Shown: one piece after another, positions 88-11,501 of the stretch | How the letters are laid out: every line of letters begins with the position of its first letter | Numbering within the stretch: position 1 is the first letter of the stretch | Source of the DNA: Candidatus Heimdallarchaeota archaeon | Lineage (GTDB): Archaea; Asgardarchaeota; Heimdallarchaeia; Heimdallarchaeales; Kariarchaeaceae | NCBI GenBank assembly: GCA_015523565.1 | Contig: WAKA01000129.1 | Span: forward strand, 1 to 11,753 | DNA length: 11,753 nucleotides | Direction of reading: 5' to 3' | Translations under genes and position numbers: made by a program | The notes under the pieces: generated by a model | Told to the model about the DNA's origin: nothing | Database searches by the model: none | Seen by the model: only the letters and a program-made list of their open reading frames with translations

Positions 88-1497
88 TTATTTTATTTCA
101 ACCATTGAAACCGATTTTATTTTAAACATATTTTTAAGATGAATGGCAATTTTATATGCCAAAAGTGGTGGTACTGCATTTCCAATTTGAATGGCAATAT
201 CGTTGAACTTTCCTGAGAATGAAAAATCGTCAGGGAACGTTTGCAATCTTGCTCCTTCTCGTAATGAAATACCTCGATTTGCTACAGGGTGTAGCTTTTC
301 TCTTCCATTGAAATCAACTGTTAAAATAGTATGCGATATGTTATTTCTGTCCAATCGCGTAAATCGAGGTCGTAGACCTGCCTTTGTCGTGATTTTGTAA
401 CCTTTTTGACCGTCTTTCTCCATCGTCTTTAGCCAACCTTCACTTACTAGTTTGTCAAGAACAGAAGCATCTGACAAAGGTATGGCTTCCTCTTTGACAA
501 AATTTTCTTCTTTACTGGGATCCATTAAGAAATTTTTCTTGGTTTGGTGGGATGCAATGAAATGAAGAGTTTCCCTTTCCTCTTTTGTAAAATTAACAAT
601 TTTCCATATTGGGACATATCTTTCACCAAACCGGTTACTTCTGAAAATTTTCCCTTCTGGAATTTTTGAGGCAATGTACAAATCTTTTTGAGGTATTTTT
701 TGTGCTATATGGAGATCTGTCTTTACTATTCTTCCATTGTCCCTTATGAATCCCATTAGTTCATTATTTGGAGGATTGTCAAAATGGACAATTCCTGTTT
801 CTGGTGTTTCAAGAGGTAGTCCTTCAAATGCATGTGCTACTGTATTGTACGGTTTTTTTTGGGTGTTTTGATCATAGAACTCTTCTAGGCTTGTTTGCAT
901 AGTTTTTGCTTTTGGATATTGACCTCTCATGTCTGTTGGGACATAATGGGTCTCTTTTGGAAAAAAAGTATCAACAAATTCAAGGATTGTTTGGTCTATT
1001 CCAATTACAAACATTCGTTCTCGTTTTTGGGGAACTCCATAGCTTGCGGCATGCAAAACTTTGTACTGAACAACATATCCCAATCTTCTCAGCTTTTCAA
1101 TTGTTTTCTTGAAAAATTGTCCTTTTTCAATTGTCTTGATTCCTGTCACATTTTCCATTACAAAAAAAGTTGGATGAATATTGTTGATCCAGTTAATGAA
1201 TTGGGGAACCAGATTGTTGCGCGGATCTTTCGTATTTCGTGACCCTTTTGCATCACTAAAACCCTGACAGGGGGGACCGCCGATAACGCCATCTATTTCA
1301 TCTTTGAGTTCATTAATCAATTTTTTTGGTGGTGGTTTATGTAGATCCAACTTTAAAGATGAAGAATTTCTATGATTTTTATAGAATGTTTCTAATGCAT
1401 ATTCATAATTGTCAATCCCTAAGATAACTTGGTAACCTGCCATCTCGAATCCTTTACTTAATCCTCCTGCACCAGAGAACAAATCTATTATCTTCAT
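88..1497 (-). CDS. dcm: DNA (cytosine-5)-methyltransferase, ~469 aa (ATG at 1497 preferred; ORF track starts at TTG 1506)
   Basis: Ordered C5-MTase motifs: I DLFSGAGG, IV GGPPCQGFS (catalytic Cys), VI MENVTG, VIII PQKRERMF, IX SLREGARLQTFPDDF, X QIGNAVPP. TTTAAATA lies 22-29 nt upstream of ATG 1497. The symbol is family-level only; the target sequence cannot be inferred. Confidence 0.97.
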   Translation of the reverse strand: MKIIDLFSGAGGLSKGFEMAGYQVILGIDNYEYALETFYKNHRNSSSLKLDLHKPPPKKLINELKDEIDGVIGGPPCQGFSDAKGSRNTKDPRNNLVPQFINWINNIHPTFFVMENVTGIKTIEKGQFFKKTIEKLRRLGYVVQYKVLHAASYGVPQKRERMFVIGIDQTILEFVDTFFPKETHYVPTDMRGQYPKAKTMQTSLEEFYDQNTQKKPYNTVAHAFEGLPLETPETGIVHFDNPPNNELMGFIRDNGRIVKTDLHIAQKIPQKDLYIASKIPEGKIFRSNRFGERYVPIWKIVNFTKEERETLHFIASHQTKKNFLMDPSKEENFVKEEAIPLSDASVLDKLVSEGWLKTMEKDGQKGYKITTKAGLRPRFTRLDRNNISHTILTVDFNGREKLHPVANRGISLREGARLQTFPDDFSFSGKFNDIAIQIGNAVPPLLAYKIAIHLKNMFKIKSVSMVEIK

Positions 1498-1518
1498 TTT
1501 AGTCAATCTTTATATTTC

Positions 1519-1528: not shown

Positions 1529-1579
1529 CCACTTAATTTAGGTTCCTCTTATTGGAAAATAAATAAGACCAGCAAATGA

Positions 1580-1894
1580 ATTTTAAAAGTCATAATTTCA
1601 TATGGAAGAAGGAATGATAAAACAGTGACGTTAAGGTTGTTAAACACTTATTTTCCTGATGGATTGAAAAAAAATACACTAATTGGAAAGGAACTTTGGG
1701 ACTTTCTAAGTGGTGAAGAAAATTACCGCGAAAAAGTACTTTGTAATATAATTGAAGGTACAAAACAAATTTTAGGGGATAAAAGCTTCATGAAACGTAT
1801 TAAGGAAAAAATAAATGCTCTAACAATTGAATTCGAAAATAAATATGGATCTGGTGAAAAAGGAATAATGAAATACATTAATGATCAATTTTGA
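1580..1894 (+). pseudogene. Probable 5'-truncated type II restriction endonuclease (C-terminal ~104 aa only)
   Basis: The frame is open from 1580 (after TGA 1577-1579): ILKVIISYGRRNDKTVTLRLLNTYF...LIGKELWDFLSGEENY...KINALTIEFENKYG. From memory, 'GxxxWxFxSG' preceded by 'YG' resembles C-termini of PmeII/TdeIII-like endonucleases. It adjoins a C5-MTase, has no in-frame ATG near its 5' end, and leaves no room for an N-terminal catalytic half. Confidence 0.55.
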
Positions 1895-1932: not shown

Positions 1933-2733
1933 TTATGAGCTCTGAGAACACCACTCAATTATGGGTTTCCAGAACTTTTCAGGTTCCTCAATCATGGCAA
2001 AGTGTCCCACTCCTTCCAAATGCAGAAGGGAATGGTTATTCAAGTGGTTTTGAAGGTCTCTTACGTAGGAAAGCGGCCAAACATCCTTTTCTGCACTTAC
2101 AATCAATGTATCCACTTTGATCTTCCTTAATTTACTTCGCACATCGAATTTCTCTATTTCTGGGTACAGCCAATAATATTCCTCGTATGCAACCTTTTTC
2201 GCCTCATTGAGTAAGCGTTGTGCCTCTCCAAGATTTGGGGGATCAAAATATACCGTATATGCACGGGAAAATTTCACCTTCAATGAGTTCGGATCCATCC
2301 GTGAAAAATAATTGTCCAATTCATTCTTTGTTTGCGGTGTAAACCGATCTCGAATATTCCATGCAAGTTCTGCCCTGTATCTGGAACTTGCAGAGGTTGA
2401 AAACAGAACAATTTTTTTGACACTTTTAGTATGTCGAACGACATAGGTCAATGCAATCAAGCCACCAAGCCCATGCCCAAACACAATTATCTTTTCATGC
2501 CCCAAGTTCTTTCTTAGCTCATTGACATCGTCAGCCATTTTTGAAAACTTCATTTCCTTTGCCTGTTCAACACTTGGCGATTTTCCATGGGATCTGTAAT
2601 CAAAAAGAACCAATGGTGACTCGAATTCAATCCCTTTTATGCTTCTCTTCAAATATGTTCGATCAAGGGGGAATGTTGGGAAAAAATATATGGGGATGCC
2701 TTGTCCTTCAACAAGTTCATAATCAAGTTGCAT
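1933..2733 (-). CDS. Alpha/beta-hydrolase-fold protein (proline iminopeptidase/Abhydrolase_1-like) with Gly in place of the nucleophile Ser, ~266 aa (alternative start 2751)
   Basis: DYRSHGKS (DxRGxGxS motif), MADDVNELRKNLG, nucleophile elbow VFGHGLGG, acid strand TLIVSAEKD, His loop GVGHFAMIEEPEKF. ATG 2733 is preferred because TTATAATA lies 26-33 nt upstream. Confidence 0.92.
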   Translation of the reverse strand: MQLDYELVEGQGIPIYFFPTFPLDRTYLKRSIKGIEFESPLVLFDYRSHGKSPSVEQAKEMKFSKMADDVNELRKNLGHEKIIVFGHGLGGLIALTYVVRHTKSVKKIVLFSTSASSRYRAELAWNIRDRFTPQTKNELDNYFSRMDPNSLKVKFSRAYTVYFDPPNLGEAQRLLNEAKKVAYEEYYWLYPEIEKFDVRSKLRKIKVDTLIVSAEKDVWPLSYVRDLQNHLNNHSLLHLEGVGHFAMIEEPEKFWKPIIEWCSQSS

Positions 2734-2758
2734 TACTAAATAGGTTGACATTTTTGAA

Positions 2759-2766
2759 TATTATAA
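2759..2766 (-). promoter_or_regulatory. Putative TATA box of the hydrolase-fold gene
   Basis: Minus strand TTATAATA (2766->2759), preceded by A-rich AAATCAAA, 26-33 nt upstream of ATG 2733. Confidence 0.45.
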
Positions 2767-2775
2767 GATTTGATT

Positions 2776-2934
2776 TCAGGCACAGGATTTCCTCATTTTC
2801 TTGCCTTTTATGTCTAGATCAACCCATTCTTCCAACAATTTCCTGTTTATCTCCTCCTTCAACAACTCTATTAACTGATCATAGATGATCTCATCCTCCA
2901 ATGAAATTTGAACATCTTTTGTTTTCTTTTCCAT
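2776..2934 (-). CDS. Small hypothetical protein, 52 aa, not in the ORF track
   Basis: Translated by hand from ATG 2934 to TGA 2776: MEKKTKDVQISLEDEIIYDQLIELLKEEINRKLLEEWVDLDIKGKKMRKSCA. Purine-rich codons, amphipathic helical pattern, same strand as its neighbours, sits within the ~300-bp gap between them, and has TTTTATT about 24-30 nt upstream. Confidence 0.7.
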   Translation of the reverse strand: MEKKTKDVQISLEDEIIYDQLIELLKEEINRKLLEEWVDLDIKGKKMRKSCA

Positions 2935-3059
2935 TATCTATTAATTTGATTTTTGAAAATAAAAGAAACGACTCTCTGAGGGTAAATTCAAAGTGAATAT
3001 TCCTGATCTATGGCTTCTTTGATGGCTAAATGAATATTATTCCTAAAAGTAATTTGTTC

Positions 3060-4592
3060 CTAAAAGTAGTCGTACTTCAGGGAATCATCAATCGCCTCTA
3101 AAAAGGGGTCTGGCTCTTCAGGAGGTATATTGTCCAACAACGAAGGTTGGGGAAGCAGTCCTCTGGAACGTTCCAACTGCCTTCCAAATTGCAAAAGCCT
3201 TTCATCATGCCATTTGGGTGCAACAATCTGAATTCCTATGGGAAAACCATCTTTGATGGTGATTGGAAAAGTCAAAACAGGATTCCCTGTGAGGCTGAAC
3301 GGTATGGTGTACGAAATCGTGGCTTTCCAATATGGAACCATTTGTCCATTGATTTCAATTGGCTCATGATATAGATTATGTCGGAATGGCATTGCAGGGG
3401 TGACAGGAAATATCCAAAAATCAATGCTGTCAAATAACTCTTCGAACTTATTCATCACGATTTTTCTTTCCCTTGTCTTCAATTCCATATTGGAATTGGA
3501 GACGTCTTTTTCTTCTTCAACTAACTTAATGAAACGCTGTCCAAACCAATTGTACAATGTTTTCATTTCCTTGTAAAGTTCTTTGTCCAATATTTTCTCT
3601 TCAACCTCATAACCGCTGTTCGTGAGTATTTCCTCAAAATTGGCTATTGACTCTACAATTCTTTTGTCTGTTGGAATAAAATCCAATTGTGGTGTAACAG
3701 CAACATTGACATTCCTCAAATAACTGGATGGCAATTTGAAGTTTGGTAGCCGTTCTGCATACTCTGTTTTGGGGGTAAACAGAACTTTTGCTTGGTAAAT
3801 GAGATCATCAACTGTCCTTGCCATGGGTCCAACAGTCAGGCATTCATAATAACCCTCATCCCTTACTTCAATTATGTCATTGGGGGATTTCCCATATGAA
3901 GATTCAGTCAATAGGAAAGAAGATTTTTCATAGCCGTTGATCTGCATCATCTTCTTCACTAACTTCTCAGAATTGAATGGAGGAAAATGCCCCAGTGTTG
4001 AAACTCTACCTTCTGTTGGCTTCAATGAAGAGATGCCACAATATGAGGCGGGTATCCTTAATGATCCTGCCAAATCACTCCCAATGCCTGCATGGGCAAA
4101 AGCAAGGGACACTGCCGCCGCTACTCCGCCACTAGAACCTCCTGCTGTAAAATCCAAGTTCCATGGGTTGCCGCATATCCCTGTTAAATCATTAAATGTC
4201 TGAACATCAAGAGCAAATTCAGGAACTGAGGCCTTTCCCATAATAAGGGCGCCGTGATCATCCAAAAGTCCTATCAGAGGTGAATCAACGGTATTAAATA
4301 ATCCTGCATATCTTAAACTCCCTGCCGAAGTAGGTAGGTCTTTTGTCAAAAATACATCTTTCACAATTGTGGGGACTCCAAAAAGAAATCTTGAATGAAG
4401 AACGTTTGGGGTTGATGAGAAAATATGATTATATTCAAATGCATCCATGTTGCTATCGTGGTTAATGCTTGCCATAGCCCTGACCAAGGGATTATATGTT
4501 GCTATTCGATTTGATGCGGCAGTTTCTATATCTGATATCGCTAAAATCTTTCTTGCAATTAAGTCTCTTAAATGCCTGATCGTTATCAACAC
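3060..4592 (-). CDS. Amidase-signature family enzyme (Ser-cisSer-Lys triad), 510 aa
   Basis: GVPTIVKD (Lys), AGGSSGG (cis-Ser), GSDLAGSLRIPASYCG (nucleophile Ser), GPMARTVDDL and GFPIGIQIV. Substrate unknown. Confidence 0.95.
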   Translation of the reverse strand: MLITIRHLRDLIARKILAISDIETAASNRIATYNPLVRAMASINHDSNMDAFEYNHIFSSTPNVLHSRFLFGVPTIVKDVFLTKDLPTSAGSLRYAGLFNTVDSPLIGLLDDHGALIMGKASVPEFALDVQTFNDLTGICGNPWNLDFTAGGSSGGVAAAVSLAFAHAGIGSDLAGSLRIPASYCGISSLKPTEGRVSTLGHFPPFNSEKLVKKMMQINGYEKSSFLLTESSYGKSPNDIIEVRDEGYYECLTVGPMARTVDDLIYQAKVLFTPKTEYAERLPNFKLPSSYLRNVNVAVTPQLDFIPTDKRIVESIANFEEILTNSGYEVEEKILDKELYKEMKTLYNWFGQRFIKLVEEEKDVSNSNMELKTRERKIVMNKFEELFDSIDFWIFPVTPAMPFRHNLYHEPIEINGQMVPYWKATISYTIPFSLTGNPVLTFPITIKDGFPIGIQIVAPKWHDERLLQFGRQLERSRGLLPQPSLLDNIPPEEPDPFLEAIDDSLKYDYF

Positions 4593-4646
4593 CTGTCTTA
4601 AATAAAGCCATTAAAAAAGTCTGATGATTATTTGACAATTTTTAGA

Positions 4647-5546
4647 TTATTGGTCTCTCCGATTGAAATAAATTGACAGATACGAGGCTATTACCAAGAT
4701 AGCGCTTCCCAATAAGAAATTTCTTGACAAATCCCTTCCAAATAAAAAATAGTCCGAAAGGAATGGGGGAATATTTTGAAGCAAAAGCAAAACTGATCCA
4801 GTAACTGCTGATATGTCCTCTAACGCGGCAAAGTATGCGAAATACGAAATCAAGGTTGAAAATACAATTAATATTCCCAAAATCAAAATTATTTCCTGTG
4901 AATAGTGTATGGATAGTTTGTCTGTATTCGAAATCAATAACCCGCCACTGACAAATGTGACAAACCATAGAACAATCAATAAAAGGGCAAAATTGTCTAC
5001 ATCATTGTCTTGTGCAAGCAACGAGGAATAAACAATATAGAACGCGAATCCTAAACTTGATATGGTTGCCGCCATCAACCCCCAAAACAAATCAGAAGTA
5101 AAATCCAAGTTTCCCAAGTCTGAAATCAGAAAAACGCCTGAAAAACCAAAAAATGCAATAAATACATTCCTTGCTTGAAATTTTTCCTTGGCAATGAAAG
5201 GTGTGATGAATGGGACATAAATCAAATAGGACTTTGTAACAATTGTGGAAAATGAAGGTATTACAAACAATTGGCTAATGTATTGGAAAATGATGGCAAT
5301 TGACTGAAATAGTGCCAAAAGGTATGTTCTTTTCATTCCAAGAAGCCGCTTGACTTTTTCAAGATATCCATCCATAAGAAGAATTGGTGACAGAAACAAG
5401 GCAGAAACAAAAAATCTCAGGAATATGAATGTATAGACGTCAATCTGGGTTAATGCAATGTCAATCAATATCGGGGCTATGCCAAAACCCAAAATTGGAA
5501 ATGAAATGAAAAAGTATCCTCGCAAAGATGATTTCTCTTGACTCAA
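4647..5546 (-). CDS. EamA/DMT-family transporter, 299 aa
   Basis: About 10 hydrophobic segments in two repeats, with FLRF, 'FIAKEKF' and 'FLFGRDLS' loops typical of EamA repeats. TTG start. Confidence 0.9.
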   Translation of the reverse strand: MSQEKSSLRGYFFISFPILGFGIAPILIDIALTQIDVYTFIFLRFFVSALFLSPILLMDGYLEKVKRLLGMKRTYLLALFQSIAIIFQYISQLFVIPSFSTIVTKSYLIYVPFITPFIAKEKFQARNVFIAFFGFSGVFLISDLGNLDFTSDLFWGLMAATISSLGFAFYIVYSSLLAQDNDVDNFALLLIVLWFVTFVSGGLLISNTDKLSIHYSQEIILILGILIVFSTLISYFAYFAALEDISAVTGSVLLLLQNIPPFLSDYFLFGRDLSRNFLLGSAILVIASYLSIYFNRRDQ

Positions 5547-5572: not shown

Positions 5573-5586
5573 ATTCAATTTTGAAT
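5573..5586. promoter_or_regulatory. Palindrome in the divergent eamA/xdhC promoter region (candidate operator)
   Basis: ATTCAA-TT-TTGAAT is a perfect 6-bp inverted repeat within the 83-bp region between the starts at 5546 (-) and 5630 (+). Confidence 0.3.
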
Positions 5587-5629
5587 GAGTCCCAACATTT
5601 TTAGTGCAAGTTTAGGATTAAGGGAAACA

Positions 5630-6562
5630 ATGAACGAATTCAAGCTCTGGTCTACCGCCCTTGAATGGTTGAAACAAGGAAAAAACCCTGTAATGGTAAT
5701 TATTGCTGAAACCAAGGGAAGCTCTCCTGGAAAGGCAGGATTCAAGATGGCGGTAAACATGGATTCAGAGTTTGTTGGAACTGTCGGTGGTGCAATTTTT
5801 GAAGCAAATATTATCAAATCACCTCCGATCAACAAAAAACCGTTTCTGAAAAAATACGTGCATAATCCCAATGCTCCTCCTGACAAACGATCTGGATTGA
5901 ATTGTGCGGGAAGTCAACAGACAATTTTTTTCCCTCTTACTCAAAAGGAAGTTCCCATTTTAGAGGAAATTGTTGATGCAATTGAAAAATCAATCCCTTC
6001 AAAATTAACTGTTACTGAAAATTCATTGGAAATTGAAACATTGAACAATCTAGAAAATATTAAGAGAACTCCTGAACTTACGTTCACAAGCAATAAATGG
6101 ATATATTCGGAAATAGTTGGTTTCCCATATGCAATCTATATTTTTGGAAATGGACACACTGGTATTGCCCTAAGTCAAGTGATGAAAAACCTTGGGTTTA
6201 AAGTCATCTGTATTGACAACCGAGAAACAACCCTTGAAAATCCATTTGCAGATAGGATTGAAATCGGTGAATTTGCATCCATTGCAAAGAATATCTCGTC
6301 AACCCCAAGAACTTTTGTTGTAATTTGTACTTATTCAATGGAAACTGACACTGAGGTTCTTCAAGCACTTCTCGACAAAAACATTCCCTATATCGGTCTA
6401 ATGGGAAGCAAAGCTAAACTTGAAAAAATCAAGAAAAGGATCGGAAAAGCATTTCCTGGTAATGTTCATGCCCCTGTAGGCATTCCAATCAATGATGAAA
6501 CCCCTGCCGAAATCGCAATAAGCATTGCCGCGGAGATAATTCATATCAAAAATAGCCGCTGA
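5630..6562 (+). CDS. xdhC: XdhC/CoxI-family molybdenum cofactor maturation/insertion chaperone, ~310 aa (track start 5585; ATG 5630 preferred)
   Basis: GSSPGKAGFKM, GTVGGAIFE, GLNCAG, Rossmann-like YIFGNGHTG, YIGLMGSKAK and HAPVGIPINDETPAEIAISIAAEII. It lies directly upstream of xdhA. Confidence 0.93.
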   Translation: MNEFKLWSTALEWLKQGKNPVMVIIAETKGSSPGKAGFKMAVNMDSEFVGTVGGAIFEANIIKSPPINKKPFLKKYVHNPNAPPDKRSGLNCAGSQQTIFFPLTQKEVPILEEIVDAIEKSIPSKLTVTENSLEIETLNNLENIKRTPELTFTSNKWIYSEIVGFPYAIYIFGNGHTGIALSQVMKNLGFKVICIDNRETTLENPFADRIEIGEFASIAKNISSTPRTFVVICTYSMETDTEVLQALLDKNIPYIGLMGSKAKLEKIKKRIGKAFPGNVHAPVGIPINDETPAEIAISIAAEIIHIKNSR

Positions 6563-6582
6563 TGTGAATTTCAACCATTAAG

Positions 6583-6590
6583 TTTTATTA
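6583..6590 (+). promoter_or_regulatory. Putative TATA box of xdhA
   Basis: TTTTATTA 23-30 nt upstream of ATG 6613, with no Shine-Dalgarno before this ATG. Confidence 0.45.
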
Positions 6591-6612
6591 TACTTGGTTT
6601 CTAATAAGTAAA

Positions 6613-8100
6613 ATGAATCCCCAAAGTGCAAATGGATTTTGGTTGAATGACTCATTCATAGAATTCAATGGTAACTTAAACATGACTTTGCTTGACTTTC
6701 TCAGATATTCACAAAATCTGCGTGGCACAAAAATTGGATGTAGGGAAGGTGATTGCGGTGCCTGTGTTGTCATTCAGGGCAAATTTTCAAATGGAAATAT
6801 TAAGTACCAACAGATTGTTTCTTGTCTTACTCCAATGGGGAATGTTATCGGAACGCATATCCTGACAATAGAGGGAATTAATTTACCTAATCAATTGACA
6901 CTCCCCCAAAAGTCCTTGATGGAAACAGGCGGAACACAATGTGGATTCTGTACTGTGGGATTCATAATTTCATTGACCGCATATTGCATGAATGCAAATG
7001 AATTCAACCGAGAAAATGCAATCAAGGCTATTGACGGAAACATTTGCAGATGTACAGGTTATAAGTCAATCATCCGTGCTATAGATATCATCAATTCAAA
7101 ATTACAAGAAATTGATCTAAATCATAGACTTGAACAATTGGTTCAAGCCAATGTGATTCCAATATCCGTAATCAAAGTTGCTAAGCAGATGGAAAGGATA
7201 TCTCCCCCATCAACAAATTCAAATGCATCAACAGTAGTGGGTGGAGGAACAGATCTTTTTGTAATGAAGAGACTTGAAATGCTTGATAAGGATGCAAGGT
7301 ATATTTTACCACTTTCCATGTCAGAAGAGAAAATCATTGAAAGAGATGGAAATATCGTTGTCCATGGATCAACAACTGTAACCGAGTTTGTTGAATCACC
7401 ACTCATACAACAAACTATCCCCAACATTAAAAAAATAGCAAAACTTATCTCAAGCACCCCTATCAGAAATATTGCAACAATCGCTGGAAACTTCGTGAAC
7501 GCATCTCCAATCGGTGATTTGAGCATTTTATTCTTGGCGTTGGATGCAGTCTTGGAAATTAAGGGTCAAGAAGGTATTCGGCAGGTTCCATTGAAAGATT
7601 TCTTTTTACAATATCGTAAGGTTGACTTGAAAAAAAATGAAACAATCCAGTATGTTTCATTCAAAAAGAAAAATCCTTGGCATCTCAATTTTGAAAAAAT
7701 AAGCAAAAGAACCCATTTGGACATTGCTTCCGTCAATTCTGCAATGTCTCTTGAAATTGAAGGGGATACCATAAAAGAAATCCATCTTTCTGTCGGTGGC
7801 GTAAAGGAAATCCCTCTATACCTGTCCCGAACAAACCAATTCCTTGCTGGAAAAAAAATAGATCAAAACACAATAATCCAAGCTCTAGAACAAATCCAGA
7901 ATGAAATAAAACCCATAAGTGATATAAGGGGAAATGAACTATATAAACGCTCTTTGGCATCGAATCTTTTCATAAGCCACCTGATGGAACTTTCTGTTCT
8001 AGATGACAAGAATCAAATCGTGCAGATTATTCCCCAATCCATTAAAATATCTGAAATTCACCATTCAAGACAAGCTAATGGAGGTAAAGCCAATGCTTGA
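6613..8100 (+). CDS. xdhA: Xanthine dehydrogenase small subunit (two [2Fe-2S] clusters plus FAD domain), 495 aa
   Basis: GTKIGCREGDCGAC...SCL, QCGFCTVG...GNICRCTGY, FAD motifs GGGTDL and IRNIATIAGNFVNASPIGD, KISKRTHLDIASV, PISDIRG. Confidence 0.95.
   Translation: MNPQSANGFWLNDSFIEFNGNLNMTLLDFLRYSQNLRGTKIGCREGDCGACVVIQGKFSNGNIKYQQIVSCLTPMGNVIGTHILTIEGINLPNQLTLPQKSLMETGGTQCGFCTVGFIISLTAYCMNANEFNRENAIKAIDGNICRCTGYKSIIRAIDIINSKLQEIDLNHRLEQLVQANVIPISVIKVAKQMERISPPSTNSNASTVVGGGTDLFVMKRLEMLDKDARYILPLSMSEEKIIERDGNIVVHGSTTVTEFVESPLIQQTIPNIKKIAKLISSTPIRNIATIAGNFVNASPIGDLSILFLALDAVLEIKGQEGIRQVPLKDFFLQYRKVDLKKNETIQYVSFKKKNPWHLNFEKISKRTHLDIASVNSAMSLEIEGDTIKEIHLSVGGVKEIPLYLSRTNQFLAGKKIDQNTIIQALEQIQNEIKPISDIRGNELYKRSLASNLFISHLMELSVLDDKNQIVQIIPQSIKISEIHHSRQANGGKANA
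8080..8085 (+). promoter_or_regulatory. Shine-Dalgarno site for xdhB
   Basis: GGAGGT ends 7 nt before ATG 8093. That ATG overlaps the end of xdhA (stop 8098-8100) by 8 nt, consistent with translational coupling. Confidence 0.8.
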
Positions 8101-10387
8101 AAAACTGAAAACCAAAATCAAGGAAATAAAAAACATTGATTCTACAGGTCATGTCACTGGTCGTTCAATGTATGTTGATGATATCATAGAAAGAGCTGAT
8201 ACACTCTTTGCTGGTGTTTTGACCTCTCCTGTTTCCAAGGGAAAAATTGTCCAAATCAATGTGGATAAGGCCCTTGAAATTGATGGAATCAATTGTATAC
8301 TTCTTGCAACTGATATTCCAGGTGAAAACCAAATTGGAGGAATTTTACCTGATGAACCCCTTTTGGCTGAAAATGAAGTCCATTACATGGGTCAACCAAT
8401 AGCTGTGTTGGTTGGAGAAGACGAAAACTGTATTCATAAGGCAATTTCCCTAATTGATCTGGAAATAGAAAAGGAAATTCCCATAACCGATCCAAAAACT
8501 GCTTTCCAAAAGGGCAAAATTCTGCTTCCACCTCGAACCTTCAGATTGGGAAATACCGAAGAGGAATTCTCGAAAAAAGACCTTGTCATTGTGGAAGGCT
8601 CTTGCGATATAGGTGGACAAGAGCATTTGTATCTTGAAACACAAGGCGCATATGCCATTCCCAAAGAAAAGGGAATCTATGTAATTTCCTCGACACAGAG
8701 CCCAACCGCGGTTCAAAGAACAATTGCAAAAGTCTTGGGGTGGTCAATGCACCAAGTTGAGGTTGACGTTACACGACTAGGTGGCGGATTTGGAGGGAAA
8801 GAGGATCAGGCAACTCCATGGGCTTGTATGGCTGCATTAGCTGCGGTTCGTATGAATAAACCTGTAAAATTAATTCTAGACAGATATGTTGATATCAGAA
8901 GCACAGGCAAAAGACATCGATATATGGCTGATTACAGGATTTGCTCAACAAAAGACGGAATGATACAAGCATATGAGGTCATGTTTTATCAAGACGCAGG
9001 TGCCGCGGCAGACCTCTCCCCCGCAGTCCTTGAACGCACTTTATTCCATTTCACCAATGCTTATTTCATACCAAATGTGACTGCAACAGCTGTGAGCTGT
9101 AAAACCAATCTTCCCCCAAATACAGCATTCAGGGGATTTGGTGGACCACAAGGGATGTTCGTAATTGAAGCTGCAATTACACGTCTTGCAGACAAACTGA
9201 AACTCCCAAGAGAGGAGGTTCAAAAGAAAAATCTCCTAAAGGAAAATGACCTCCTCCCTTATGGACAAATAGTGAGAAATGTCAAAACCAACCTAAGTTG
9301 GGATACATTAATTACAAACTTTGATATAAACAAAAGAATTGCATCTATAAATAAATTCAATGAGGAGAACAAACTTAAAAAGAAAGGATATGCATTCATG
9401 CCCATTTGCTTTGGCATTTCATTTACAAAAACGAGCTTGAACCAAGCATCTTCCCTTGTCAACATTTATTATGACGGAAGTGTTGGAATTTCTACAGGTG
9501 CCGTCGAAATGGGTCAAGGAGTCAATACCCGAATTGCCCAAGTTCCTATGACTGTTTTCAGCCTCCCTCTCAATAAAATAAAAATTGAAACAACCAATAC
9601 CACCCGTATAATCAACACCTCTCCATCCGCCGCAAGCTCCACTGCTGATTTAAATGGAAAGGCAACAGAACTGGCATGCATGACTCTAAAGGAAAGACTT
9701 TTGCAATTTGCATCGGAACTGCTGGAAACCCCTATGGAACAACTGGATTTTGAAGATCTATATGTTACCAATAATAATCAAAAAACCTCCCTTTCTTGGG
9801 ACGAGCTGATTTCAAAAGCTTATGAAAACAGAATCAGCCTTTCAGAAAAAGGATTTTATGCAACTCCTAGTATCCATTTCGATTCTTCCATCGAAAAAGG
9901 TCATCCATTTGCATATCATGTTTACGGCACTTCATTCCATGAAGTGACAATTGATGTCGTTAAAGGTACATATTCATTGGATTATGTTGCTGTTGTCCAT
10001 GATGTCGGTAAATCCATGAATAAATTGATTGATCAAGGGCAACTGGAAGGTGGATTGGTTCAGGGAATTGGATGGATGACACTGGAAGAACTTCGTTATT
10101 CTGATGAGGGTAGACTTCTTTCCAATTCGTTGTCAACCTATAAGGTGCCTGACATCTATTCCATCCCCAAAGTACTTGAAACAATGTTCCTTGAAGACCC
10201 TGAACCTCATGGACTTCTAAAATCAAAGGCAATTGGAGAACCCCCCCTTATGTATGGAATAGGGACATATTTTGCATTGCTCAATGCCATTAATCAATAT
10301 ACGGGAAAATTACCTAATACAATAATTTCCCCAATGACACCTGAACGGCTATTTACCTTCCTCCATTTATCGCGCCATCATCCTTAA
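8093..10387 (+). CDS. xdhB: Xanthine dehydrogenase molybdopterin-binding subunit, ~764 aa (track start 8003 is probably too early)
   Basis: HVTGRSMYVDD, GGQEHLYLETQ, RLGGGFGGKED, VLERTLFH, TAFRGFGGPQG, GISFT, GAVEMGQG, DQGQLEGGLVQGIGW and SKAIGEPPL. These include equivalents of the bovine XOR active-site residues Glu802, Arg880, Phe914, Phe1009, Thr1010 and Glu1261. Confidence 0.96.
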   Translation: MLEKLKTKIKEIKNIDSTGHVTGRSMYVDDIIERADTLFAGVLTSPVSKGKIVQINVDKALEIDGINCILLATDIPGENQIGGILPDEPLLAENEVHYMGQPIAVLVGEDENCIHKAISLIDLEIEKEIPITDPKTAFQKGKILLPPRTFRLGNTEEEFSKKDLVIVEGSCDIGGQEHLYLETQGAYAIPKEKGIYVISSTQSPTAVQRTIAKVLGWSMHQVEVDVTRLGGGFGGKEDQATPWACMAALAAVRMNKPVKLILDRYVDIRSTGKRHRYMADYRICSTKDGMIQAYEVMFYQDAGAAADLSPAVLERTLFHFTNAYFIPNVTATAVSCKTNLPPNTAFRGFGGPQGMFVIEAAITRLADKLKLPREEVQKKNLLKENDLLPYGQIVRNVKTNLSWDTLITNFDINKRIASINKFNEENKLKKKGYAFMPICFGISFTKTSLNQASSLVNIYYDGSVGISTGAVEMGQGVNTRIAQVPMTVFSLPLNKIKIETTNTTRIINTSPSAASSTADLNGKATELACMTLKERLLQFASELLETPMEQLDFEDLYVTNNNQKTSLSWDELISKAYENRISLSEKGFYATPSIHFDSSIEKGHPFAYHVYGTSFHEVTIDVVKGTYSLDYVAVVHDVGKSMNKLIDQGQLEGGLVQGIGWMTLEELRYSDEGRLLSNSLSTYKVPDIYSIPKVLETMFLEDPEPHGLLKSKAIGEPPLMYGIGTYFALLNAINQYTGKLPNTIISPMTPERLFTFLHLSRHHP

Positions 10388-10640: not shown

Positions 10641-11501
10641 TCAAAGTGCCATGATCATTCCTGCGCCGATTACCATTAAAATCATCCCTGGAATACGTTC
10701 CTTGACCCTTTCATGAAGAAACTTTTTTGCTAGATACGCCGTTACAAATGTTGATAGCAAACTCAAAGGTTCTGCTACTGTAACTTCCAGATTAATTATT
10801 GCAATCAATAAAAACAGGTAACTCCAACCATTCGTCAATGATGCCGCAAATATGACTTTGGGTTTAGAATTGAGTAATTCTTTGATTATCCAACCATTCC
10901 TACGGTAAACAACTACCAATAGCAAAAAAAATCCGATCAGAAAATTTGTCAACCATGCATATAATATCTCATTTACCTCTTGAATTATCAGTGTATCCAA
11001 TGTCCTGCCGATGGCTATGAAAAAAGACCCCAAAATCATGAAAAGGGACGCTTTTGAGGATTTTACGGTTTGAAGTTTTGTCCATAGATTTCCCTCATGA
11101 AGTAAAAATACTCCTATAAACATTCCTATAGCACCAACAACTCGAAAAATTGTAATGTGGTCTTCCAAAAACAAATATCCAAGAAACATCAACCAAAGGA
11201 TTGATGAATTATACAAAGGTGCAACCAATGAGGCGTCACCAACTGAAAGTGCTTTAACATAGGCAAAAAATCCCAATGAATAACTCAAAGAACTCAACAA
11301 TGCAAGAAGCATAAAATGACTTGATATGAAATATGCCGATTTAGGAATAAAAAACAATACTGGTGCCAACAAAATCCCAGCCAATAAAAAGAAAATCGTG
11401 GAGACCACAACAGAATCAAATTTTTCCAGCTTTTTCAAAAATATCCGTTCAGATCCCAACAACAATATCCGTGCAGATAACGCAAAATACCCAACTATCA
11501 T
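10641..11501 (-). CDS. EamA/DMT-family transporter, 286 aa
   Basis: Two five-helix repeats: KALSVGDASLVAPL...FLFLEDHIT and EVTVAEPL...KFLHERV...GMILMVIGA. Confidence 0.92.
   Translation of the reverse strand: MIVGYFALSARILLLGSERIFLKKLEKFDSVVVSTIFFLLAGILLAPVLFFIPKSAYFISSHFMLLALLSSLSYSLGFFAYVKALSVGDASLVAPLYNSSILWLMFLGYLFLEDHITIFRVVGAIGMFIGVFLLHEGNLWTKLQTVKSSKASLFMILGSFFIAIGRTLDTLIIQEVNEILYAWLTNFLIGFFLLLVVVYRRNGWIIKELLNSKPKVIFAASLTNGWSYLFLLIAIINLEVTVAEPLSLLSTFVTAYLAKKFLHERVKERIPGMILMVIGAGMIMAL

Follow-up and report, generated by a model that had tools for sequence, protein, structure and literature searches.

The methyltransferase gene, its host and its locus

The window, which is the whole stretch of 11,753 nucleotides that was analysed, begins with an intact gene for a C5 cytosine DNA methyltransferase (MTase; Table 1). 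The contig stops 87 bases beyond this gene, and a second assembly stops there too. PF00145 was the sole domain matched across the entire protein encoded by ORF 88-1506 (E 1e-67, Pfam); motifs I, IV (Pro-Cys), VI (ENV), VIII and X are all in open frame, and the catalytic motifs are invariant in an alignment with 30 homologues. The query DNA is present in hydrothermal vent metagenomes, and the vent contigs that cover positions 165-2800 show no letter differences in the MTase gene; no RNA data set was listed as containing the query DNA.

Table 1. Coordinates of the methyltransferase, of its parts and of the neighbouring nuclease remnant in the window.
Feature	Position	Strand	Remarks
C5 cytosine DNA methyltransferase, intact	88..1506	(-)	472 aa with TTG as start codon; 469 aa with the ATG at 1497
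Catalytic motif IV with Pro-Cys	1255..1281	(-)	residues 76-84, invariant in 30 homologues
Variable loop after motif VIII, site of putative clamp motifs across the family	847..960	(-)	residues 183-220; alignment, loop table
Basic flank 5' of the PIP box	898..912	(-)	residues 199-203; KAK = residues 199-201
PIP box QTSLEEFY	874..897	(-)	residues 204-211, or 201-208 counted from the ATG at 1497
Target recognition region, family-specific	271..714	(-)	profile match; weak winged-helix match HTH_27 E 0.007, below cut-off
C-terminal third of the cognate EcoO109I/TdeIII-type restriction endonuclease, left as a remnant	1540..1894	(+)	divergent from the MTase

The first-pass annotation of this DNA supposed an archaeal host with a PCNA sliding clamp. 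The host is indeed an Asgard archaeon (Heimdallarchaeia), and its genome (3.57 Mb, 38.6% GC, 90% complete) encodes PCNA from a single gene. The closest homologue of the MTase is 58% identical and is found on an 8430-base contig of a congener (genome G002). A 16S rRNA search of the host gave no hit, and the placement of the host was made through this contig.

The partner nuclease had been described as truncated, and this was confirmed: positions 1595-1891 (+) align with residues 215-313 only of the 313-aa nuclease of the family (40%, E 1e-18, tblastn). The remnant gives an RE_TdeIII match (E 0.0014) and is preceded by in-frame stops; an extra one-base deletion near 1667-1674 is present in another assembly and in two runs. 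No further piece of the nuclease was found in the 90%-complete host assembly. The divergent arrangement of the MTase and nuclease genes is common to the query and the congener.

The genes further away belong to other functions. XdhC (Pfam) is followed by two ORFs that resemble, by sequence only, the Fe-S/FAD and molybdopterin subunits of xanthine dehydrogenase (5585-10387, +). The segments 1933-5546 (-) and 10641-11501 (-) encode an alpha/beta hydrolase, an amidase, an EamA transporter (Pfam) and a second probable EamA protein. The neighbours of the flanking alpha/beta hydrolase gene differ in each congener.

A PIP box in the loop after motif VIII

Translation of 874-897 bears out the exact PCNA-interacting (PIP) box, preceded by basic residues and placed outside the catalytic motifs, that was the starting point of this work. 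QTSLEEFY fits Qxx[LIM]xx[FY][FY] exactly and lies 40 residues beyond motif VIII, in a loop that sits between this motif and the conserved segment leading to the target recognition region. The match to the pattern is by itself weak, because the bare pattern occurs at chance level in the host proteome (63 observed compared with 62.5 expected, or 2.6% per 472-aa protein). Such a frequency would suit an explanation in which QTSLEEFY, lying in a polar loop that evolves fast, matches by chance or as a vestige, the Q-x-x-L part being an old structural element and no clamp docking taking place in vivo. We regard this explanation as unlikely, and a first argument against it is the quality of the peptide, which ranked 9 among about 1.08 million positions of the host proteome with a host-trained PIP score. 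This score was trained on five boxes (PolB, PolD, RFC-L, NreA and Fen1) and was applied only to 8-mers with Q at position 1 or F/Y at position 7. The top scorers near QTSLEEFY that were not used for training include Hef, a Hel308-type helicase, RNase HII and UDG; the score therefore picks clamp clients. Shuffling the loop yielded a strict PIP box in 0.46% of the trials.

The same score pointed to PIP boxes in proteins without a Pfam family or with DUF2797 (G000:C222:1618-2325, C135:387-2375 and C126:395-1345). Separately, a 162-aa Mrr_cat-type nuclease with a C-terminal QKRLDEFF was observed (G000:C29:31912-32400, L038).

Models of the loop and of its complex with PCNA

The AlphaFold2 model of the MTase had a mean pLDDT of 89.4, with values below 50 at residues 200-206 and a short helix at residues 207-214. 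Low values in this segment of an otherwise confident model are what is expected of a flexible loop around the PIP box, as predicted in the first-pass annotation. When MTase residues 181-222 (numbering of the 469-aa form) were modelled with host PCNA, the peptide was placed in the PCNA pocket, with a complex score of 0.75 compared with 0.01 for the best control; the mark used for this score is met by 51 of 78 solved complexes and by 2 of 108 mismatched pairs. The runs shared at least 64% of their contacts and the partner pLDDT was at least 53. Modelled contacts begin at residue 197 and the tightest ones centre on the PIP residues; on the side of PCNA, the contact residues are those of the pocket described in PMC6881253, matched by offset in a mapping made in this analysis. 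As PIP-PCNA complexes have been solved many times over, the model demonstrates likeness to such pairs, not binding, and its score may derive from these solved complexes.

One haloarchaeal loop behaved differently in prediction. In the model of the Haloplanus loop, of the form Q-L-T-L-x-G, the segment is ordered and hairpin-like, with beta-bridges (pLDDT 82). Because of this order, we did not accept the form as a firm PIP box. It may be structural, as it has no aromatics, is modelled as ordered and has a counterpart in mouse DNMT1, where QLSV stands in the equivalent segment at a similar offset; the order and the QLSV both favour the explanation of QTSLEEFY by a chance or vestigial match.

Clamp-type peptides recur in the loop or in the tail

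A single-protein search of genome contigs returned no relatives of the MTase; they were found with a profile built on the target recognition region, which matched 22 loci in genomes, 36 in metagenomes and 49 cluster representatives. A tree of the 66 non-redundant full-length members was made without the loop and the tail. No part of these 66 proteins varies more than the loop after motif VIII, and yet clamp-type peptides recur there: Q-x-x-hydrophobic was observed in 41 of the 66 loops, compared with a mean of 9.2 and a maximum of 20 in shuffled loops (the rows being related).

The loops of the query clade (7 members) contain QTSLEEFY, QHSLLDFT (the peptide of the congener, at the position of the query's), ISLDKWM, HSLDKWL and PSLNDFF, together with one weak and one degenerate form. 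The first-pass annotation had raised the conservation of the motif in archaeal homologues, and this was found in part: a hydrophobic residue at position 4 with an aromatic one at position 7 is mostly kept (6 of the 7), but the full Q...FY form is not (Q1 in 2 of the 7). In Nanohaloarchaea and Halorutilales the loops show Q-x-[TKR]-L forms from which the two aromatics are missing, and the Fen1 proteins of these archaea end in a full PIP box.

Members with a short or motif-less loop often have a longer tail, with a motif at its end. In Lokiarchaeia these tails end in TLLNFL and SLLDFI; a second Loki clade has LITEFI, and the bacterial clade has LSLF or ISLF. Altogether, 47 of the 66 members have a motif in the loop only, 10 in the tail only, 2 in both and 7 in neither, so that a motif at one site nearly excludes one at the other (patterns set after viewing; rows related). 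A Fisher test of loop versus tail (p 5e-6) and a product over eight hand-picked clade representatives were rejected as probabilities, since patterns and representatives had been picked after viewing and the rows are related.

Sequences fetched later contained QTQLDEFL and TTLEMFY in the loop, and QVLLTDFF and QSSLSLYI at the C-terminus. Many of them had no motif at all, so the clamp motif is optional in the family. The number of homologues that lack it would agree with a chance match in the query; in contrast, the recurrence of full PIP forms in distant members does not. A further distant member, P0167, joins a C5 MTase to an HhH-GPD-like domain at the C-terminus, as judged from its sequence.

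Bacterial members carry beta-clamp-type motifs

The first-pass annotation suggested QLSLF-like beta-clamp motifs in the same loop of some bacterial homologues. Motifs of this kind are present in three Halobacteroidaceae: QLNLF, QLNLL and QLNLF occur among Natroniella, Halanaerobacter and Halonatronum, in the loop position of the query, and a metagenomic neighbour of the bacterial members has QMDLF. The MutS proteins of the three hosts contain QMPLF, QLPLF and QLALF, and PCNA was not found in the two of these three hosts that were tested. An exchange between PIP and beta-clamp motifs within the MTase family is thus supported by the sequences; it rests on few independent events, since the named bacteria form one clade. 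L089 and L101, and also P0031 and P0045 (short contigs; a 'Woesearchaeota' MAG) within the bacterial clade, were assigned to neither host domain. A structural hairpin would leave unexplained both the complete beta-clamp pentamer of the bacterial members and the terminal motif of the short-loop members, which argues again against a QTSLEEFY that arose by chance.

It was also observed that, in the bacterial clade, the nucleases have EQLNL at their C-terminus (L015:2251-3219 and L148:3635-4591). This end is beta-clamp-like minus the final F, and may be merely a homologous terminal helix.

The methyltransferase belongs to a mobile restriction-modification cassette

Homologues of the MTase are adjoined by an EcoO109I- or TdeIII-family nuclease, and an HhH-GPD glycosylase is often the third gene. 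HhH-GPD glycosylases of the type found in this cassette repair T:G mismatches that result from deaminated 5mC, and the cassette's glycosylase is likely to be such a T:G mismatch repair partner. Examples lie at L009:6718-7758, L146:12395-13072 and L148:6102-6761, that of L009 having an extra C-terminal domain. TdeIII cuts GGNCC and EcoO109I cuts RGGNCCY; judging from the nuclease family, the target of the MTase is probably of the GGNCC type. The host genome has an observed/expected ratio of 0.58 for GGNCC, but also of 0.32 for GGCC, 0.30 for CCGG and 0.47 for CCWGG, and word avoidance fixes no target.

The family is rare: searches recovered it from 2 of the 61 close relatives and from 6 of the 400 Asgard genomes covered. 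MTase gene neighbourhoods differ in two species of the genus, in the congeners the family does not lie beside the flanking hydrolase gene, and one copy lies inside an element that also encodes a serine recombinase and a primase/helicase of the D5 type. Intact nucleases are found beside motif-bearing members, for example in Halanaerobacter (322 aa), Halorutilales (328 aa) and a nanohaloarchaeon (322 aa), and also within the query clade, in L009 (313 aa) and L151 (310 aa). In its cassette, a mobile Type II restriction-modification (RM) system, the MTase has the part of the methylase, and the nuclease has decayed in this strain; the loss of the nuclease here looks like ordinary RM decay. Because the motif is found beside intact nucleases and the gene is rare and mobile, the putative clamp tether would be a property of the mobile cassette, older than the nuclease loss. 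In the congener, a TAG stop lies just upstream of the PIP-like peptide and the nuclease is frameshifted (L012:2100-2335, G002:C359); both may be errors, as the coverage of this contig is 1.8x.

These results bear directly on the proposal, made in the first-pass annotation, that the enzyme has been domesticated and works like DNMT1, as a maintenance or epigenetic MTase coupled to replication. An intact MTase beside a nuclease remnant is what this proposal would predict; in addition, the top Foldseek matches are the catalytic domains of DNMT1 and MET1 (TM by query about 0.65, 21% identity for DNMT1; identity of about 21% for the top matches) and an HMM aligns the segment after motif VIII with DNMT1. 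The Foldseek matches, however, reflect the shared catalytic fold, and the best sequence match in the PDB is M.HaeIII. RFTS, CXXC and BAH domains, i.e. the regulatory domains of DNMT1, are absent from the MTase (Pfam over the whole protein), and in a published tree the eukaryotic DNMTs have no robust Asgard sister group (PMC12344493). The distribution of the family is not that of a conserved vertical host gene, the motif occurs equally beside intact nucleases, and the congener copy carries the stop codon and the frameshifted nuclease mentioned above (on the 1.8x contig). The proposal was therefore not upheld, and we consider it very improbable. A better candidate for a domesticated enzyme is the solitary-type C5 MTase of about 325 aa, which recurs in most of the Heimdallarchaeia genomes searched and has no comparable PIP-type motif in its loop or tail. 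These solitary enzymes have GE[AS]VPP in motif X (G000:C232:62132-63136, L005; L050-L070). The query family also suggests that neither DNMT1 ancestry nor epigenetic domestication should be read from the mere presence of a PIP box in an Asgard methylase.

Comparison with known systems

M.HaeIII (PDB 1dct; PF00145) and the EcoO109I/TdeIII nucleases (PF14511, PF09520) are among the closest known systems, with the same motifs, domain order, adjacent nuclease and patchy mobile distribution. Compared with the C5 MTases of Type II RM systems, the query family has a longer loop after motif VIII with a putative clamp peptide, and a larger target recognition region; compared with Type II RM pairs, the query locus has a nuclease reduced to a remnant. 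DNMT1 shares with the query the C5 catalytic fold and a PIP-type peptide on a cytosine methylase. The PIP box of DNMT1 is N-terminal, far from the catalytic domain; the query MTase, devoid of the DNMT1 regulatory domains, has its PIP box inside the loop of a catalytic-domain protein. The box of DNMT1 sits in a long disordered region (PMC6881253). The tethers of DNMT1 and of the query are best read as convergent.

The same split within a family, between PCNA-type motifs in archaea and beta-clamp-type motifs in bacteria, is known for IS1634 transposases (PMC4549789) and for EndoMS/NucS (PMC4929162, PMC6159521), and clamp binding by these proteins has been shown by experiment. Their motifs are C-terminal, on a transposase or a repair nuclease, whereas those of the query family are in an internal loop, or C-terminal if the loop is short. 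The PCNA clients of the host (Fen1, RFC-L, PolB, PolD DP2, NreA, RNase HII and Hef) have end peptides nearly identical to that of the MTase, e.g. QTSLESFF in Fen1; these motifs are mostly C-terminal and on core vertical genes, whereas that of the MTase is internal and on a mobile defence gene. The internal site counts against clamp docking, since one survey placed every curated archaeal PIP motif at the C-terminus (PMC6881253). No clamp or PIP motif in RM methylases was reported in the literature searched, the coverage of which is incomplete, so that prior notice is possible. What is new here is that the clamp-type motif sits in an internal loop, that this site exchanges with the C-terminus and that the forms match the host within one methylase family.

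A proposed clamp tether for a restriction-modification methylase

Taken together, the peptide, the models and the family survey point to an MTase that probably docks on PCNA via its loop and methylates sites on newly replicated or repaired DNA. In this proposal, the loop after motif VIII would be a tolerated insertion site that bears a sliding-clamp docking peptide, through which the MTase would bind the clamps left on newly made or repaired DNA. Full methylation would be restored soon after the fork, and therefore no unmethylated site would be exposed to the nuclease. The tether may also bias methylation to the host's own DNA over incoming DNA.

A wider generalization is put forward tentatively, with slightly more doubt than confidence: RM methylases could be tethered to the host clamp by a movable peptide, retuned between PCNA and beta-clamp when the cassette passes from archaea to bacteria or back. 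Self-marking would then be coupled to the fork, and clamp loading would help to tell host from incoming DNA; such a tether would be a prokaryotic parallel to DNMT1-PCNA coupling and not its ancestor.

Another role for a PCNA-binding peptide would be mainly to help the mobile cassette establish itself or persist by giving it access to replicating DNA after transfer, as has been shown for IS1634 transposases, with little effect on steady-state methylation. The mobility of the cassette, including the copy carried by the element with a serine recombinase, and the finding that IS1634 motifs function across domains (PMC4549789) are compatible with this role; nevertheless, it overlaps with the fork-coupled methylation proposed above and differs from it only in the time at which the tether matters, and we give it very little weight.

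RM methylases are usually viewed as free-diffusing enzymes that race the nuclease. If the fork-coupled proposal is true, a clamp tether would be a direct route to fast remethylation of new DNA, favouring self over invader. The MTase family is a clean test case, because its members have a PIP box, a beta-clamp motif or none, in the loop or in the tail, depending on the lineage.

Clamp-like peptides in unrelated methylases

A universal clamp-motif rule for C5 MTases was rejected, since few of about 20 unrelated Bacillota and Halobacteriota enzymes had a candidate motif; among further Asgard C5 MTases, one of 5 had one. Several unrelated RM-type MTases of Heimdallarchaeia end in PIP-like peptides. 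Clamp-like peptides were noted in the unrelated RM-type methylases G000:C24:240-1355 (L002), G000:C128:3-1130 (L040), G000:C200:3630-4835, L042, L043, L044, L134 and L172. C-terminal peptides in such enzymes include QSSLEPYL, QLTLAEYL, QVKLRQFI and weaker forms; internal ones are QKTLLEYF in an N4/N6 methylase and QPTLSDF in the loop after motif VIII of a Halobacteriota enzyme.
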